Source: Nitrospiraceae bacterium
GTDB taxonomy: Bacteria > Nitrospirota > Thermodesulfovibrionia > Thermodesulfovibrionales > UBA6898
Assembly: GCA_003153275.1 (NCBI GenBank)
Contig: PLXX01000072.1
Span: forward strand, 1,661-52,981
DNA length: 51,321 nt
Direction of reading: 5' to 3'
Below the pieces are notes generated by a model. It had not been told where the DNA came from. It worked only from the letters and a program-made list of their open reading frames with translations, and did not search any database. Positions 1 to 30,856 of this stretch are shown here, piece by piece. The translations under genes and the position numbers were made by a program. Within the stretch, counting starts at the first letter, position 1, and the number at the start of each line of letters is the position of its first letter.

Positions 1-638
1 AGTTCGCATACGCAACATTCTTAAATACGCTGGACCGGCGGGCTTTCAAGTCCGGTGTGATCGTCTATACTGACAATCCGGCCTTTACCTCTGTGATCGG
101 CAACGTCAACTTCATGGGGCGTTATGGTATTACACCCCATGAGGCCGCTGCCATTGTCATAGCCAGGTGTATACAGAGATATTCTGAAACACCCATCAAG
201 GAGACATACAATCTGCCCATGCGTGCTGAAATTAAAAACAAGAAAGTTCTAAAGACCGAGTCGTCGGCTTCTACCAATAACACCTCCCCCGTACCTGGAA
301 GGAAACGCGGGGAGCATGTTTGGAGTTTTTGGAAACGGCTAAAGGTCGGCGGGGCCTGCGATAACCTCAATGCGCTCTACCGTGTCAGGCTGCCCTCACA
401 GGGCTCCACAAGTTGCGCGACATCCGGCGCAGTCCTCTCGGACACCGACTGTCCTGTTGACAGTACGGCTTCGAGTGTGACCCCATGTTGTAAATCACGG
501 GACTTGTGTGGAATCGGGGCGCGCATCCCCGACGTCAGTCGGCGATAATACTGTTCGATCGCCGCATTTTGTAACTATGAGATATTTGTCCATAGTTTAA
601 GGAACGGTGGCTGTCAATTGATCAGTAAATCGATAAGT

Positions 639-1015: not shown

Positions 1016-1354
1016 CTAACAGCCAAAGACAACTTTGAGGGCTGTTTTTACGGTGAACATTTGATCTGTCCCGATCATTCCGACACGCTCGACAAGGCGT
1101 TCCTCAGCTACAGAACGAACTTGGAAAAGATCTATCACGGATTTCTTAGCGAGGCCATTTTCATGTCCTGGGGTAAGAATAACCATCCAGGGCACCTCCT
1201 TGAATTTATCCTTGTAATCGGTAATTGGAGCTATGATCTTTAGTGGGAGTACGCCAACCGTGTCGTCATTAACGATTACGCAAGGACGAGTCTTTTTGAC
1301 TTCGGCTCCTATTGTCGGATCCAGATTAACTACCCATATTTCCCTCTGTCTCAT
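1016..1354 (-). CDS. mazF: Type II toxin, PemK/MazF-family endoribonuclease
   Basis: 112-aa ORF. REIWVVNLDPTIGAEVKKTRPCVIV and the following IAPIT segment fit the MazF/PemK pattern. The ATG overlaps the stop of the upstream antitoxin ORF (ATGA). Confidence 0.85.
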   Translation of the reverse strand: MRQREIWVVNLDPTIGAEVKKTRPCVIVNDDTVGVLPLKIIAPITDYKDKFKEVPWMVILTPGHENGLAKKSVIDLFQVRSVAEERLVERVGMIGTDQMFTVKTALKVVFGC

Positions 1355-1602
1355 TTGAAATCCTCCCCGTCCAAAGATTGAAGGGCAGTGAGGTCGGTGT
1401 TCTGCCGGTATTCATCAACCATAGAACGTGCAATTTTCTCAACTTTCTTTTTTTGCTGAGATTCCCTGTAGGCTTCAAATGCTTTAGCAATAAGCTCAGA
1501 CTGAGACAGTGAAAGTTCTGTGGCAAGGCTCTTGATTGCCCTGGAATAGCCGTGCGGCAATGAAATAGTTATACGGTCATGCTGCTTTGAAGCTGTCGTC
1601 AT
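1351..1602 (-). CDS. Ribbon-helix-helix (CopG/MazE-like) antitoxin
   Basis: I moved the start from the track's 1665 to the ATG at 1602, which is preceded by GGAAGGAG 7 nt upstream. ITISLPHGYSRAIKSLATELSLSQSELIAKAFEAY fits an RHH pattern. The ORF overlaps the toxin start. Confidence 0.7.
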   Translation of the reverse strand: MTTASKQHDRITISLPHGYSRAIKSLATELSLSQSELIAKAFEAYRESQQKKKVEKIARSMVDEYRQNTDLTALQSLDGEDFK

Positions 1603-1698
1603 AACAGTTCTCCTTCCTTGAATTTTCATTATGTCTATAATGACATACAATTGTACGGAATACAATATGTATTAGAATACGCGATAAGTTATGTCTGA

Positions 1699-1908
1699 GG
1701 TAAGATTGCAGGCGAGGATGGCATTATCGGTCCGCGTGCAGAGCAGTTCGAAAAGGGCGAACGGATTATTATTAACGACGGGCCGTTCAGGGATTTCTCA
1801 GGAGTGTTCAAGAGGGACCTCCCCGGAAGAGACAGGGTCGTCATCTTACTCAACGCACTGCATGGCAGCCTCGAACTCGACCGCGGGGCCCTTAGGAAAC
1901 AACGGTAA
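1699..1908 (+). pseudogene. 5'-truncated RfaH/NusG-family antiterminator gene (KOW domain only)
   Basis: This frame is not in the ORF track because it has no Met. It reads GKIAGEDGIIGPRAEQFEKGERIIINDGPFRDFSGVFKRDLPGRDRVVILLNALHGSLELDRGALRKQR-stop. It resembles the RfaH C-terminal KOW region (G-F-G-F ... LLLN pattern). A TGA at 1696-1698 lies immediately upstream and the NGN domain is absent. Confidence 0.6.
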
Positions 1909-2001
1909 TCAGTCCCTGAACAATACATGGTAAATGGCCCATGTTTACCTACCGCTTTCGATGAACTTTCTGTGTCCATTAATCAGCTTGTTGGGCCTGC
2001 T

Positions 2002-2030
2002 TTGCTATTTTAAAATGCATCTGCTATTAT
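2002..2030 (+). promoter_or_regulatory. Candidate sigma70-type promoter of the island operon
   Basis: TTGCTA (2002-2007), 17-nt spacer, TATTAT (2025-2030). It sits ~65 nt upstream of the ops-like element and ~110 nt upstream of the MarR-family gene. Confidence 0.4.
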
Positions 2031-2032
2031 AT

Positions 2033-2047
2033 GTTCATAGCATGAAC
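2033..2047. promoter_or_regulatory. Perfect inverted repeat GTTCAT-AGC-ATGAAC just downstream of the -10 box (candidate operator)
   Basis: 6-bp arms with a 3-nt spacer, read directly from the sequence. The position overlaps the predicted transcription start, and a MarR-family gene follows. Confidence 0.3.
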
Positions 2048-2095
2048 GCAGCACAAAATATGCAGCCTGCTTTGTAGTGGCGAGTGTCATGAAAC

Positions 2096-2107
2096 GGCGG
2101 TAGCCTG
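2096..2107 (+). promoter_or_regulatory. ops-like (operon polarity suppressor) element GGCGGTAGCCTG
   Basis: It matches the enterobacterial ops consensus GGCGGTAGnnTG at all 10 specified positions. It lies on the coding strand in the 5' leader of a ~27-kb co-directional glycan operon. Confidence 0.5.
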
Positions 2108-2139
2108 TCCGGGTGTGCAGCCCCTCCGCTTGCAAGAAC

Positions 2140-2466
2140 ATGAACGAATCCCAGTATAAAATCCTGCTTGAAATCTCGTACAAAGGGACGCTTTCTCAGC
2201 GCGACCTTGCCAAAAAGATCGGCCTCAGCCTTGGCAAGATAAACTATACAGTAAATGCCCTCCTCGAAAAAGGGTATATTAAGGCGAGCCGCTTCAAGAA
2301 CTCAAAGAACAAGATGGCCTATCGGTATATACTCACCCCCTCTGGGGTGTTCACAAAGATCACCCAGACCCATCTGTTCCTCGAGAGAAAGACCAGGGAA
2401 TACGAACAGCTTAAGGCAGAAATAGAGGCCCTCCGGATTGAAGCGGAGAAGCAAAAAACAACGTGA
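2140..2466 (+). CDS. MarR-family, EPS-associated transcriptional regulator
   Basis: MNESQYKILLEISYKGTLSQRDLAKKIGLSLGKINYTVNALLEKGYIKASRFKNSKNKMAYRYILTPSG is a wHTH followed by a C-terminal coiled coil. I chose the ATG at 2140 rather than the GTG at 2113. Confidence 0.8.
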   Translation: MNESQYKILLEISYKGTLSQRDLAKKIGLSLGKINYTVNALLEKGYIKASRFKNSKNKMAYRYILTPSGVFTKITQTHLFLERKTREYEQLKAEIEALRIEAEKQKTT

Positions 2467-2777
2467 TCCAGGCCAATGTTCTCGCCGCCATGACTCAAAA
2501 TGGGGATGCAATAAACCAGGTCTATAACGTAACTGCCGGAGAAAGGACGACACTGAATGAGTTGTTCGGCATGATCAGGGGGTATCTTTCTGGTTATGAC
2601 GACAGGATTAAATCGATCGAGCCCATGTACTGGCCTTTTAGAAAAGGGGAAGTATTGCATTCCCTGACGGATATCTCTAAAGCGAAAAGATTAATCGGAT
2701 ATGATCCAAAATACAACGTTAAAAAGGACATGGAAGAGACTGTAAAATGGTTTTTTCAAAACAGACAAATGAAGTGA
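2463..2777 (+). pseudogene. C-terminal third of an NAD-dependent UDP-sugar 4-epimerase (WbpP/TviC-like), 5'-truncated
   Basis: VIQANVLAA...QVYNVTAGERTTLNELF...FRKGEVLHSLTDISKAKRLIGYDPKY matches only the last ~100 residues of ~340-aa SDR epimerases. The Rossmann N-terminal part is missing. The fragment abuts the MarR-family gene stop. Confidence 0.7.
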
Positions 2778-2844
2778 TATAATCAATAACTGGGACAAAG
2801 AGCCACTTAACGCATCATAAAAACAACAGAGAGGAGTGATGACC

Positions 2845-3093
2845 ATGCTAACGGAATATATCGAAGAGGCACTCAAAAGAGCCCATTATGAAATGATCGA
2901 CGATGAGGAACCCTTTTACGCGGAGATTAAGGAACTTAAGGGTGCGTGGGCAACCGGCAAATCGCTGGAAGAGTGCCGAGGGAATCTCAAGGATGTTATC
3001 GAGGGATGGATACTGCTCAGTATAAAAAAAGAGATAAAAATCTCGAAGCTTGGTAAATTCGGAATAAGAGAAGTTCACGAGTCGGTCGCATAG
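2845..3093 (+). CDS. hicB: HicB-family antitoxin (UPF0150)
   Basis: MLTEYIEEALKRAHYEMIDDEEPFYAEIKELKGAWATGKSLEECRGNLKDVIEGWILL is the classic HicB N-domain. A GAGGAG RBS lies 8-9 nt upstream of the ATG at 2845. Confidence 0.8.
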   Translation: MLTEYIEEALKRAHYEMIDDEEPFYAEIKELKGAWATGKSLEECRGNLKDVIEGWILLSIKKEIKISKLGKFGIREVHESVA

Positions 3094-3096
3094 AAG

Positions 3097-3150
3097 ATGC
3101 CTAAATTATCTCCTGTTACACGTTCTGAACTTATATCGAGACTATGTTGA
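3097..3150 (+). pseudogene. hicA: hicA toxin stub (17 codons)
   Basis: MPKLSPVTRSELISRLC-stop is the typical HicA N-terminus (MPKL..V..REL...L), cut off after 17 residues. It starts 3 nt after the hicB stop. Confidence 0.55.
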
Positions 3151-3293
3151 TTATGTCCATTAGTGGACTAACGGGCCTACTGTCCTTCGGGCTTGGTGAT
3201 GCTACGCTTCATTACGTTGCCCATTATACAGGTAATAGTGATGGTGAAGGAGCACGAGAGGTTTCTAAAGGACAGGGCGTATCTGAATGCTAA
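3144..3293 (+). pseudogene. Possible internal fragment of a Wzx/MOP-family flippase
   Basis: A 49-aa ORF reads MLIMSISGLTGLLSFGLGDATLHYVAHYTGNSDGEG... It resembles the loop motif (..GLG.A..KYV..Y.G.ND..) near TM2 of polysaccharide flippases. It has no flippase context on either side. Confidence 0.25.
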
Positions 3294-6171: not shown

Positions 6172-6822
6172 GTGAAGAATTACCGCCTTGAGGAATATAA
6201 TAAAGTAATTCAATTTGTTGATATCGTTAAACCTGAGAATATTTTGGATGTAGGTTGCGGTGAAGGGCGATACGCAATACCTCTTGCACAGAGGGGTTAT
6301 AAGGTTACAGGGGTTGATAAAAATTGCGCTCAGGCTGATCATCTTACCCAATACGGCGTGGCCGTACTTTCGGAAGGCGAGTTTGTTAACGAATCTGAAA
6401 GCTATGATCTGGTGCTTATGAGCCACATAATAGAGCACGTGTCCAGCTCAGAACTCATTGAGTTCATGGATTCTTATTTGAAGGTATTAAAGACTAACGG
6501 TTATCTTATAATTGCTACACCATTCCTTCATAGTGGGTTTTATGATGATTATGATCATGTTCATCCTTATACGCCAGCCGCTATATTATCACTATATTCT
6601 GACTACGTTCAGCTACAAGCAAAGCCGCGTTATCGTCTAGAGTTCAGGCAACTCTGGATACGCCGTTGGCCATACAGTATACCCTGCTACTTCGGCGAAA
6701 ATAGTGGGCTCAGCATTCTTAAAAGAAACATAAACAGAATGCTCAAAGTTCTTTTCATGTTTTCTGATAGATTAGTAGGGAGAAGAACTGGATGGGTCGG
6801 GTTATTCCAGAGAATAAGCTGA
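6172..6822 (+). CDS. Class I SAM-dependent methyltransferase (Methyltransf_11/23-like)
   Basis: ILDVGCGEGRYAIPLAQRGYKVTGVD motif I and DLVLMSHIIEHV. GTG start. Confidence 0.75.
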   Translation: MKNYRLEEYNKVIQFVDIVKPENILDVGCGEGRYAIPLAQRGYKVTGVDKNCAQADHLTQYGVAVLSEGEFVNESESYDLVLMSHIIEHVSSSELIEFMDSYLKVLKTNGYLIIATPFLHSGFYDDYDHVHPYTPAAILSLYSDYVQLQAKPRYRLEFRQLWIRRWPYSIPCYFGENSGLSILKRNINRMLKVLFMFSDRLVGRRTGWVGLFQRIS

Positions 6823-7315: not shown

Positions 7316-8359
7316 ATGAAGACCTATCAGCGCATCCAAAAATACAAACCTGATGAGAGGAAATGCTGTGTGAATGACCCGGTAGTCTCTATCTTGATTC
7401 CGATGTTTAACTCCGAGCTTTATATCGCGGAGACATTGGAATCATGTTTCGCGCAAACGTATAAAAATATAGAGATAATTGTTGTTGATGATGGATCAAC
7501 TGATAATAGTCTTGCCATCGTAAGAAATTATGAGAAAAACAATAATAATATTAGAGTACTTTCACAATCGAACAGAGGCGCATGTGCGGCAAGAAACCTG
7601 GCTTTCAATAATTCAGTTGGGTCTTACATCCAGTACCTGGACTGCGATGATTTGATCCCTCCTAGAAAAATCGAATTACAGCTGGATCGCTTGCGCGAGA
7701 TTCAATTCGCTGAAGGAGTCGTAGCATTTTCAAGTTTTAAACATTTGCGGAATGGAAGTTTGGACCGCATACCAAGCCGGTTGATTGATAAAGACTATGA
7801 TAACCCAAAAGAGCTTCTAATCAACCTGACTTCAACAACGATAAATTTACCTCACTGTTATTTGACTACCAGGCAGTTGGTCGAAATATCGGGCGGTTGG
7901 GATGAATCTGTTTCAAAAAATCAGGACGGAGAGTTTTTTTCCAGAATTCTATTCCTTTCCGACAAAGCGGTGTTCGTGCCAGACATCGAGGTCACCTGGC
8001 GGCTAACAGGAACGGGAATTAGCAGCACCCATTCACTTGAATCAATGAAATCGCAACTTTATGTAGCCAATAAAATATCAGATTTAATTTTAGGTTTTTC
8101 AGATACAGACCGGGCAAAAACTACATGTGCTGCTCAGTATGGATGGATTGCATATCTTGGTTACCCTGAAAACAAACTCCTTCTGCAGGAAATTAAGCAG
8201 AACCTGAAAAAAAGAAACCTTCCTTTTTTTATTCCCTACAGTGGGCGCCTATTTCGATTGATAAGAGTTTTCCTCGGTTGGCGCATTGCTTCAAGAATTG
8301 TAAAACATAAGAATACCATCCGATTTTGCGGCTGGCTTTCTAGTAAGTCGAAAAACTAA
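7316..8359 (+). CDS. Family 2 glycosyltransferase
   Basis: VSILIPMFNSELYIAETLESCFAQTYKNIEIIVVDDGSTDNS and a DxD motif (YLDCDD). Confidence 0.85.
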   Translation: MKTYQRIQKYKPDERKCCVNDPVVSILIPMFNSELYIAETLESCFAQTYKNIEIIVVDDGSTDNSLAIVRNYEKNNNNIRVLSQSNRGACAARNLAFNNSVGSYIQYLDCDDLIPPRKIELQLDRLREIQFAEGVVAFSSFKHLRNGSLDRIPSRLIDKDYDNPKELLINLTSTTINLPHCYLTTRQLVEISGGWDESVSKNQDGEFFSRILFLSDKAVFVPDIEVTWRLTGTGISSTHSLESMKSQLYVANKISDLILGFSDTDRAKTTCAAQYGWIAYLGYPENKLLLQEIKQNLKKRNLPFFIPYSGRLFRLIRVFLGWRIASRIVKHKNTIRFCGWLSSKSKN

Positions 8360-8371
8360 TACATCTTGTTG

Positions 8372-9261
8372 ATGAAGAGGGTGCTACAGTCAATGTTGAA
8401 AAAAATTATTTGGTCTCTGGCAAGGAAAATGGGGATTCAAAAGAAAGTGACTCGTTATCTAAACTATGTGAAGATAATATCCATAAATGATGTAGAGATA
8501 CGCATCTCATCAATTCGTGGAATTGCTTGTTATGCATCTGAACTCTGGATGATCGATTTGCTTGCCAAATTTCTTCCAGAGCGATCTGGGGTATTTATAG
8601 ATGTGGGGGTTAACGTTGGACAAACTTTAATCAAACTTAAAGCTATTGACCCCAAAGAGAATATATTGGCTTTGAGCCAAATCCAGTTTGTGTTTCTTAT
8701 CTTCACGATCTCATTAAGGCGAATGCTTTTGATCATTGCACGCTGCTTCCCGTCGGATTGTTCACGGAAGATTGTGTTTTATCTTTGGACTTCTTTTCAG
8801 ATAATCTAACCGACTCATCGGCTTCTCTGGTAAATAACTTCCGGCCGGAATCGAAGATTCATTCCCGTTTATTTGTTCCGGTTTTCAGGTTTGATAGTTT
8901 AGCCAAGATTTTAGGAGACAAGTCTGTTGGCATAGTAAAGATCGATGTTGAAGGTGCTGAACTTGAGGTTGTAAAATCTCTTTTGGAGCTAATCAGGCGC
9001 GATAAACCAATCATCATGATAGAGCTTCTCCCAGTTTATTCAAGTGAGAATACTTCTAGAAAGAATAGGCAAGATGAGTTGGAGCGGATATTTGCGGACA
9101 ACGACTATACAATCTTGCGAGTAGAGAAGAATTCTTCTGATGCATACTCTGGGCTAAGGCGTATTGAGAAGATAGGAATTCATTCCGATTTGACTCAATG
9201 CGATTATGTAATTGTCCCTAGCACACAACTCGCAGTTCTTGGAAACATTGACTATCTATGA
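8372..9261 (+). pseudogene. FkbM-family methyltransferase interrupted by a 1-nt frameshift near 8660
   Basis: ORF 8366-8809 carries FIDVGVNVGQTLIKLKAIDPKEN. The conserved continuation YIGFEPNPVCVSYLHDLIKANAFDHCTLLPVGL is in the next frame, joining ORF 8758-9261 (KIDVEGAELEVV). Confidence 0.8.
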
Positions 9262-30826: not shown

Positions 30827-30856
30827 CTGACAAACAAGTCGGCGAGGAAGTATAAT
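30827..30856 (+). promoter_or_regulatory. Candidate sigma70 promoter of the GDP-fucose operon
   Basis: CTGACA (30827-30832), 18-nt spacer, perfect TATAAT (30851-30856). An AGGAGG RBS lies 6 nt before the ATG at 30894. Confidence 0.45.

Follow-up and report, generated by a model that had tools for sequence, protein, structure and literature searches.

The 51,321-nt stretch of Nitrospiraceae DNA analyzed here (hereafter the window) raises the question of why the leader of a long polysaccharide operon carries an ops element of enterobacterial sequence just downstream of a truncated gene for an RfaH-like factor, and whether any factor still serves that element. In Escherichia coli, RfaH and its ops site (GGCGGTAGnnTG) are known from the leaders of the waa, rfb, kps, hly and tra operons, and to our knowledge the ops-mediated recruitment of RfaH is understood in detail only for that species. 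Proteobacteria account for about 95% of known RfaH proteins (PMC7593976), whereas the host here is Nitrospirota-like, as judged from named relatives at 55–65% identity. The evidence below indicates that GGCGGTAGCCTG at 2096–2107 is a genuine ops-type leader element of a polysaccharide operon headed by marR_EPS, that it belongs to a leader module conserved across several phyla and apparently undescribed, and that the neighboring factor gene has been cut in an event associated with mobile DNA.

The element lies on the plus (non-template) strand, the same strand as the downstream genes, and matches the 12-nt ops consensus exactly. A scan with GGCGGTAGNNTG found only this match in the window, and still only this one when one mismatch was permitted. 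A sequence-only reading of the window had already pointed to the match and put its chance expectation at 0.1 per window; dinucleotide shuffles gave 0.02 exact GGCGGTAGNNTG matches per window, rarer than that figure. RNA polymerase is predicted to pause at T2106/G2107. Upstream on the same strand lies a sigma70-type promoter at 2002–2030 (TTGCTA-17-TATTAT, 9 of 12 matches in a promoter scan), with a TG two bases upstream of the -10 hexamer that makes it an extended -10 promoter (TG-n-TATTAT). It is followed directly 3' of the -10 by a palindrome, GTTCAT-AGC-ATGAAC and then GCA (2033–2050, plus strand), which overlaps the expected transcription start site. The palindrome itself, GTTCATAGCATGAAC at 2033–2047, is the only GTTCA-N5-TGAAC in the window, where 0.01 would be expected. 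Both the promoter and the inverted repeat are therefore as the sequence-only reading described them.

Conservation of the motif extends to orthologous leaders. A MarR_EPS profile scan of one genome per species returned 80 loci, or 83 together with three close relatives of the window (L001–L003). The core GGCGGTAG was present on the coding strand no more than 500 nt upstream of marR_EPS in 46 of these 83 loci, which come from different species, against about 0.6 expected by chance (83 × 500/65,536); the single-base variants GGCGGCAG and AGCGGTAG occupied the same place in two more. By record title, the loci belong to Nitrospirota (including Thermodesulfovibrionales and Nitrospiraceae), Syntrophorhabdus and other 'Deltaproteobacteria', with one each from Aminicenantes, Rokubacteria and Eubacteriales and three from Gammaproteobacteria. 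When the leaders were aligned on the motif, the consensus extended to GGCGGTAGCCTGYC, with C9 in 96% and G12 in 91% of leaders and a pyrimidine at position 11 in all of them (T 76%, C 24%). E. coli RNA polymerase pauses on ops at a pyrimidine-G step, and the pyrimidine at position 11 with the G at position 12 means that this step is retained in the present leaders along with the identical core 8-mer.

Loci that are otherwise dissimilar share a recurrent order: TTGACC, 17–18 nt, TATATT; directly after it GTTCA-N5-TGAAC-GCA; a variable stretch of about 40 nt; a hairpin; and GGCGGTAG. The -10 hexamer ends 58–71 nt upstream of ops in distant loci and 65 nt upstream in the window. This shared order and spacing supports the promoter proposed in the sequence-only reading and places ops about 60 nt into the predicted transcript. 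The distance from the start of the palindrome to G1 of ops was 57–64 nt in most leaders (the equivalents in L004–L090) and 63 nt in the window, with no conservation of the intervening sequence.

The palindrome is more widespread than ops. GTTCA-N5-TGAAC occurred upstream of marR_EPS in 74 of 84 sources (for example L011 2721 and L052 2970), against 0.5 expected, and stood directly 3' of the -10 in Nitrospirota, Syntrophorhabdus-type organisms, Beta- and Gammaproteobacteria, with or without ops. Gallionella- and Sideroxydans-type loci have the palindrome in a very short leader with no ops there. Because its arms are invariant rather than covarying, and because it is present also where ops is not, the palindrome is probably the operator of the MarR_EPS (TIGR04176) regulator itself. 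No mention of GTTCA-N5-TGAAC as a MarR_EPS operator was found in the literature searched.

The hairpin behaves differently. Of the 46 ops-bearing leaders, 32 have a hairpin that ends 1–6 nt before ops, versus 17% of control positions, and the stems vary (CCTGTC/GACAGG, ATGGC/GCCAT, GAAGG/CCTTC, TTCATTTT/AAAATGAA, AGATGCTA/TAGCATCT and others). In a covariance-model alignment, 89.6% of cells were paired, versus 67% after shuffling and 33–46% with slid partners, and both sides had changed in 67 hairpin cells versus 25 after shuffling; such an alignment is fitted to the structure, so these figures are biased towards the hairpin and the slid controls are the fairer comparison. Loop lengths differ among the leaders, and RNAalifold on an ungapped MAFFT alignment of the 42-nt region therefore did not recover the upstream hairpin; the covariance-model alignment was used instead. 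Run on the window, a covariance model of hairpin plus ops gave a single hit (56.8 bits), and it recovered the equivalent sites elsewhere. The weak hairpin GTGGC-GAGT-GTCAT at 2077–2090 (plus strand), with three Watson-Crick and two G-U pairs and ending 5 nt before ops, is by this comparison the local form of the hairpin conserved in related leaders.

This arrangement recalls the JUMPstart RNA motif (Rfam RF01707), a gammaproteobacterial motif in which a hairpin is followed by ops (PMC2864571). In both, a short conserved hairpin stands directly before ops in the 5' untranslated regions of polysaccharide clusters. The present leaders differ in having a spacer of 1–5 nt between hairpin and ops (1 nt in E. 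coli), a different stem sequence and a fixed distance from a promoter-proximal palindrome. RF01707 (gathering score 35 bits) had no match in window positions 1500–3000 at E ≤ 10 or in ten related loci at E ≤ 1; as a positive control, the waaQ leader of E. coli reached 55.2 bits. The covariance model built here did not find the E. coli site. JUMPstart and the present leaders share a design and lie outside each other's sequence models. The searchable literature yielded only proteobacterial cases of ops or JUMPstart and no description from outside the Proteobacteria.

The gene upstream of the promoter survives only as a 3' remnant of an RfaH-like NusG-paralog gene (1714–1908, plus strand; tblastn, NCBIfam and PDB), comprising residues 98–161 (linker and KOW domain) and the stop codon. 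An open frame spans 1699–1908 but lacks a usable start, the first candidate being a GTG that leaves 34 aa. The 69-aa fragment matched only the C-terminal positions of the RfaH (E 1e-6), NusG and UpxY models in NCBIfam and NusG KOW chains in the PDB (7e-5), with no match in Pfam. A word-indexed protein search with the fragment returned no matches, and an exhaustive search of representatives gave nothing closer than diverged KOW matches, none above 48% identity. These searches were superseded when intact orthologs were reached through the neighboring marR_EPS gene: the three contigs L001–L003, whose MarR_EPS is 91% identical, carry an intact 161–167-aa NusG-family gene directly upstream. The remnant corresponds to residues 98–159 of the L001 protein at 96.8% identity (tblastn), which settles the NusG-paralog homology of the fragment.

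By blastn, window positions 1714–2457 align to L001 3578–4318 at 90%, with no alignment further upstream, which places a rearrangement junction at 1713/1714, where homology to the intact locus of the relatives begins. As homology starts at residue 98, the whole NGN domain is missing. The sequence-only reading was thus right that only a KOW remnant is left and that the NGN domain has gone, with the refinement that homology proper starts at 1714. The remnant is still 93% identical to its relatives at the DNA level, with 9 synonymous and 4 non-synonymous codon differences, and this suggests that the NGN half was lost recently. Having lost its first 97 codons, the KOW piece is evidently a non-expressed pseudogene. 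The 51-kb window and the 9 kb upstream contain no full-length two-domain NusG paralog, only codons 98–161.

The sequence that abuts the remnant is of mobile type. Upstream of 1714 are a mazF gene and its overlapping partner gene, one further, unassigned open reading frame (ORF) and the end of a TnpB-like ORF. The MazF/PemK-type toxin gene (1016–1354, minus strand) has a full-length match to PF02452 (E 5.5e-24). The partner (1351–1602, minus strand) is a probable antitoxin gene, with a weak ribbon-helix-helix match (PF01402, E 0.024), and overlaps the start of mazF by 4 nt, as is typical of a toxin-antitoxin pair. Window positions 1–548 (plus strand) hold the C-terminal part of the TnpB-like ORF, from an IS607-family element that starts upstream of the window. 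With the MazF protein of the window as query, we found two separately assembled contigs (L091 and L092) that extend 9 kb further upstream. Over 11.3 kb their identity to the window is 99.99% and 100%, and they have the same 1713/1714 junction; neither contains NGN-coding sequence, including in the additional 9 kb. On these contigs the TnpB-like ORF is 467–588 aa long with a weak TnpB match (NF040570, 4e-6) and is preceded by an IS607 transposase of the serine recombinase type (NF033518, E 3e-49); the IS607-family element continues there at L091 10807–13116 and L092 10807–13000. Because two independent assemblies share the junction, we regard the truncation next to the MazEF cassette and IS607-family element as real and associated with mobile DNA, and not as an assembly artifact. 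The TnpB-like ORF is long and divergent, and adjoins the MazEF cassette that abuts the truncated gene.

Other lesions lie on the far side of marR_EPS. Relative to L001–L003, the window has lost a UDP-glucose dehydrogenase gene and the larger part of an epimerase gene (2458–3293), leaving a C-terminal remnant of a TviC-like NAD-dependent sugar epimerase at 2463–2777 (plus strand; positions 241–340 of 348 of model NF011728 only). In L003, the distance from marR to the point of the epimerase remnant is greater by about 2.5 kb. A HicB-like gene at 2836–3093 has no HicA partner. The locus of the closest intact RfaH-like gene found, at 89% identity (L085, 10001–11130), has the opposite lesion: immediately past the stop codon, ~90 nt match the intergenic region of the window, and beyond them a minus-strand HicAB pair replaces the promoter, ops and marR. 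The spot between factor gene and operon appears to be prone to rearrangement.

The operon that ops precedes begins with marR_EPS at 2140–2466 (plus strand), a full-score member of the MarR_EPS regulators (TIGR04176, E 5.7e-36, 122.8 bits, cut-off 88) that is here both target and neighbor of ops. By Pfam matches and ORF layout, a co-directional polysaccharide gene array follows at 2836–35924 (plus strand). It encodes the HicB-like protein, a Wzm/Wzt ABC exporter, numerous glycosyl- and methyltransferases, an aminotransferase, a Wzy_C-domain protein, WecG- and WecA-like transferases and, after short gaps, enzymes of the GDP-mannose pathway. The sequence-only reading had described an essentially gap-free co-directional array of about 27 kb (2140–29619). 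The genes are indeed co-directional, but the array extends to 35924, and gaps of 224–494 nt interrupt it at 6822, 8359, 22056, 29619 and 30670. The target is therefore a Wzm/Wzt polysaccharide gene array of 27–34 kb. Its first kilobase holds further gene remnants, and the large downstream ORFs are all intact with full-length domain matches.

Two features within the array merit mention. The highest-scoring sigma70-like site of the window, CTGACA-18-TATAAT at 30827–30856 with 11 of 12 matches, lies 38 nt before the GDP-mannose dehydratase gene, and the sugar-nucleotide genes at the end of the array may have their own promoter. An FkbM-type methyltransferase ORF at 8758–9261 follows the 400-nt gap at 8359 and aligns with its Pfam model over the C-terminal half only; the gene may have been frameshifted or truncated. 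Scans for terminators and promoters over 2–38 kb were near background and uninformative on operon structure.

The marR_EPS start has no recognizable Shine-Dalgarno sequence. GGAG, GAGG or AGGA occurred no more than 20 nt upstream in none of 35 marR_EPS starts behind ops-bearing leaders, nor at that of the window (2120–2139); as a crude control, 8 of 30 uncurated ORF starts in the window had one of these motifs upstream. RfaH-dependent operons often lack ribosome-binding sites (PMC13015549), and the KOW domain of RfaH recruits ribosomes (PMC7593976, PMC13015549). The Shine-Dalgarno-less marR_EPS fits ribosome recruitment by the KOW domain of a factor. The leader thus resembles those of E. coli ops operons in two further respects: a long polysaccharide operon follows, with the site tens of nucleotides into its leader, and the first gene has no Shine-Dalgarno sequence.

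In related loci, ops is repeatedly found with a factor gene. An intact RfaH-like gene lies about 100–430 nt upstream of ops in L001–L003 and in at least ten more ops-bearing loci, and L088 and L090 likewise have one upstream; for 13 of the 46 leaders with ops, the immediate upstream neighbor is an RfaH-like gene. Beta- and gammaproteobacterial loci keep the three components together in a permuted order: marR_EPS, the RfaH-like gene and then an E. coli-type GGCGGTAGCGTG 70–410 nt past its stop codon (L060 3457–4247, L066 3264–3912, L068 3315–3965, L065 2327–3423). In L086, 8.4 kb lie between the factor gene and the one ops visible downstream of it, which implies that the factor can act at a distance. 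The pairing of ops and factor is not obligatory at short range, since many ops loci have no factor gene nearby and one RfaH-like gene has no ops. As the factor gene is non-adjacent in many related genomes, a supply in trans is plausible for the window genome too, with its ops site served by a paralog encoded elsewhere. In one Nitrospira metagenome-assembled genome, the Rfam cspA thermoregulator model scored 65.7 bits, below its gathering score of 78, just upstream of the ops leader (L009 2261–2630); this match probably reflects a cold-shock protein gene there.

The intact relatives show what kind of factor is involved. Their best-scoring model is TIGR01955 (RfaH), at 98–99 bits for L001 and L003; an intact relative scored 77 on UpxY (cut-off 100), 37 on NusG and 36 on LoaP (cut-off 125), which sets this family apart from UpxY and LoaP. 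The best solved relative of the intact protein is E. coli RfaH (1e-14, versus 3e-8 for NusG), and K10, T72, R73, E48, I93, F130, R138 and L142 are conserved in the alignment with it. K10 and R73 have been named as DNA-binding determinants of RfaH (PMC7593976). The term 'enterobacterial-type', used in the sequence-only reading, holds for the sequence of the site only, the factor family being RfaH-like and not an RfaH equivalog. The factor here is normally encoded beside its target, whereas E. coli rfaH is unlinked and monocistronic. In this the family resembles Bacteroides UpxY, Myxococcus TaA, Bacillus LoaP and the 'monomorphic beta-RfaH' proteins (PMC13015549), whose genes head the operons that they presumably serve. 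On its best AlphaFold model it would also share with these cis-encoded NusG paralogs a beta-barrel C-terminal domain, and some E. coli ops-contact residues are likewise missing.

We consider RfaH-style loading at a promoter-proximal ops pause the most likely mechanism, with a probability of about 75%. Transcription would start from the promoter at 2002–2030, inside the palindrome at 2033–2047 that is the probable site of the MarR_EPS repressor. Some 70 nt on, RNA polymerase would pause at the T-G step of ops, with GGCGGTAG exposed on the non-template strand and the short RNA hairpin just emerged. An RfaH-like NusG paralog would then bind and travel with polymerase through the 27–34 kb array, suppressing pausing and Rho-type polarity, and would probably also bring ribosomes to the Shine-Dalgarno-less first gene. 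In the present genome, ops would rely on a paralog encoded elsewhere, or the operon would have reduced distal expression; that the window copy is still served by a factor we put at roughly even odds.

Several observations weigh against this mechanism. The comparisons show the sequence elements, their conservation and the truncation directly, but the start site, the pause, factor binding and the read-through are all deduced from sequence. The whole leader of the window folds no better than its shuffles (z = 0.06) and its own hairpin is weak, so the claim for a hairpin rests on comparison and not on thermodynamics. For most of the loci with ops, no RfaH-like gene lies within 3 kb, and the RfaH-like gene of L089 has neither marR_EPS nor ops beside it. 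At 99 bits the RfaH-like family falls below the TIGR01955 equivalog cut-off of 144.5. H20, R23 and Q24 contact ops in E. coli RfaH, and the Nitrospirota-type proteins have L for H20, G or N for R23 and A for Q24. The best AlphaFold model (60-sequence alignment) has a C-terminal domain folded as a beta-barrel (predicted local distance difference test score, pLDDT, 89.9) and not as the autoinhibited alpha-hairpin; the NGN domain was modeled confidently, and the other four models had pLDDT 71–81. Among the conserved residues, however, E48, I93, F130, R138 and L142 bear on the autoinhibited alpha-helical state of E. coli RfaH, which refolds when ops is bound. The family shares this beta prediction with a class reported in a 2026 preprint, in which cis-encoded, beta-predicted RfaH homologs missing some ops-binding residues acted independently of ops in E. 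coli (PMC13015549). The present loci differ from that class in keeping an invariant ops core, which does not easily fit ops-independence of cis-encoded beta-type homologs.

The same observations could be read to mean that no factor is loaded at all: the hairpin and GGCGGTAG might form a cis-acting leader RNA (compare epsC/EAR), a factor-independent pause or a second MarR_EPS site, with the likeness to ops being convergent. The RNA-type covariation of the hairpin, G-U pairs included, the unusually fixed spacing from the promoter, the scarcity of nearby factor genes and the three replaced contact residues would all suit such a view. However, eight of eight core bases are those of the enterobacterial ops and the pause step is kept, the gene upstream is RfaH-like in more than a quarter of the ops-bearing leaders, the proteobacterial motif directly follows an RfaH-like gene, and the palindrome, present even without ops, is a far better candidate for the MarR_EPS site. 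We therefore consider this explanation unlikely. Less likely by far is a chance match, or a truncated gene produced by chimeric assembly. The window does come from a metagenome assembly, but the low chance expectation, the conservation of the motif across species and the near-perfect agreement of two separately assembled contigs across the junction leave very little room for either.

A stronger challenge concerns the window copy only. Here ops would have been functional until the recent truncation of the factor gene and would now be an unserved relic, at which the pause remains, distal expression is poor and the locus decays. The 51-kb window and the 9 kb upstream offer no full-length replacement, the other lesions at the 5' end (the dehydrogenase and epimerase losses and HicB without HicA) look like decay, and the high DNA identity of the remnant points to a recent event. 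Against this, the large downstream ORFs are all intact, the factor gene is often non-adjacent in relatives (as in L086), such that a remote paralog could serve, and the stretch from promoter to ops is 94.5% identical to L001, compared with 82.8% for the intergenic DNA just upstream. We regard an orphaned site as a serious possibility, though not the favored one.

For the biology of RfaH-type control, the mechanism is familiar, and what is new is the lineage, the residue set of the factor, the fixed promoter spacing and the companion palindrome. An invariant ops core occurs in Nitrospirota, Syntrophorhabdus-type organisms, Aminicenantes and Rokubacteria, tied to RfaH-like genes with a partial DNA-reading pocket, and these natural pairs of factor and site could be used to study ops recognition and the age of the mechanism. 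In uncultured lineages, a hairpin followed by GGCGGTAGCCTGYC would be a simple marker of the leaders of long polysaccharide operons, and GTTCA-N5-TGAAC is a candidate operator for the uncharacterized MarR_EPS regulators. More speculatively, the cassette of promoter, GTTCA-N5-TGAAC, hairpin and ops, with its 57–64 nt spacing, might be an old control unit of marR_EPS operons that has moved between phyla, its factors reading GGCGGTAG without the H20/R23/Q24 pocket and perhaps without autoinhibition; we hold this only tentatively. A published evolutionary model has ops recognition arising late, inside the Proteobacteria (PMC7593976). If the tentative view of the cassette is true, ops recognition did not arise late within that group, and cis-encoded 'monomorphic' RfaH-like proteins would be ops-dependent after all. 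The window itself mainly illustrates how mobile elements can separate an ops site from its factor gene, and on the same tentative view it would be a natural factor-gene knockout for complementation in trans.

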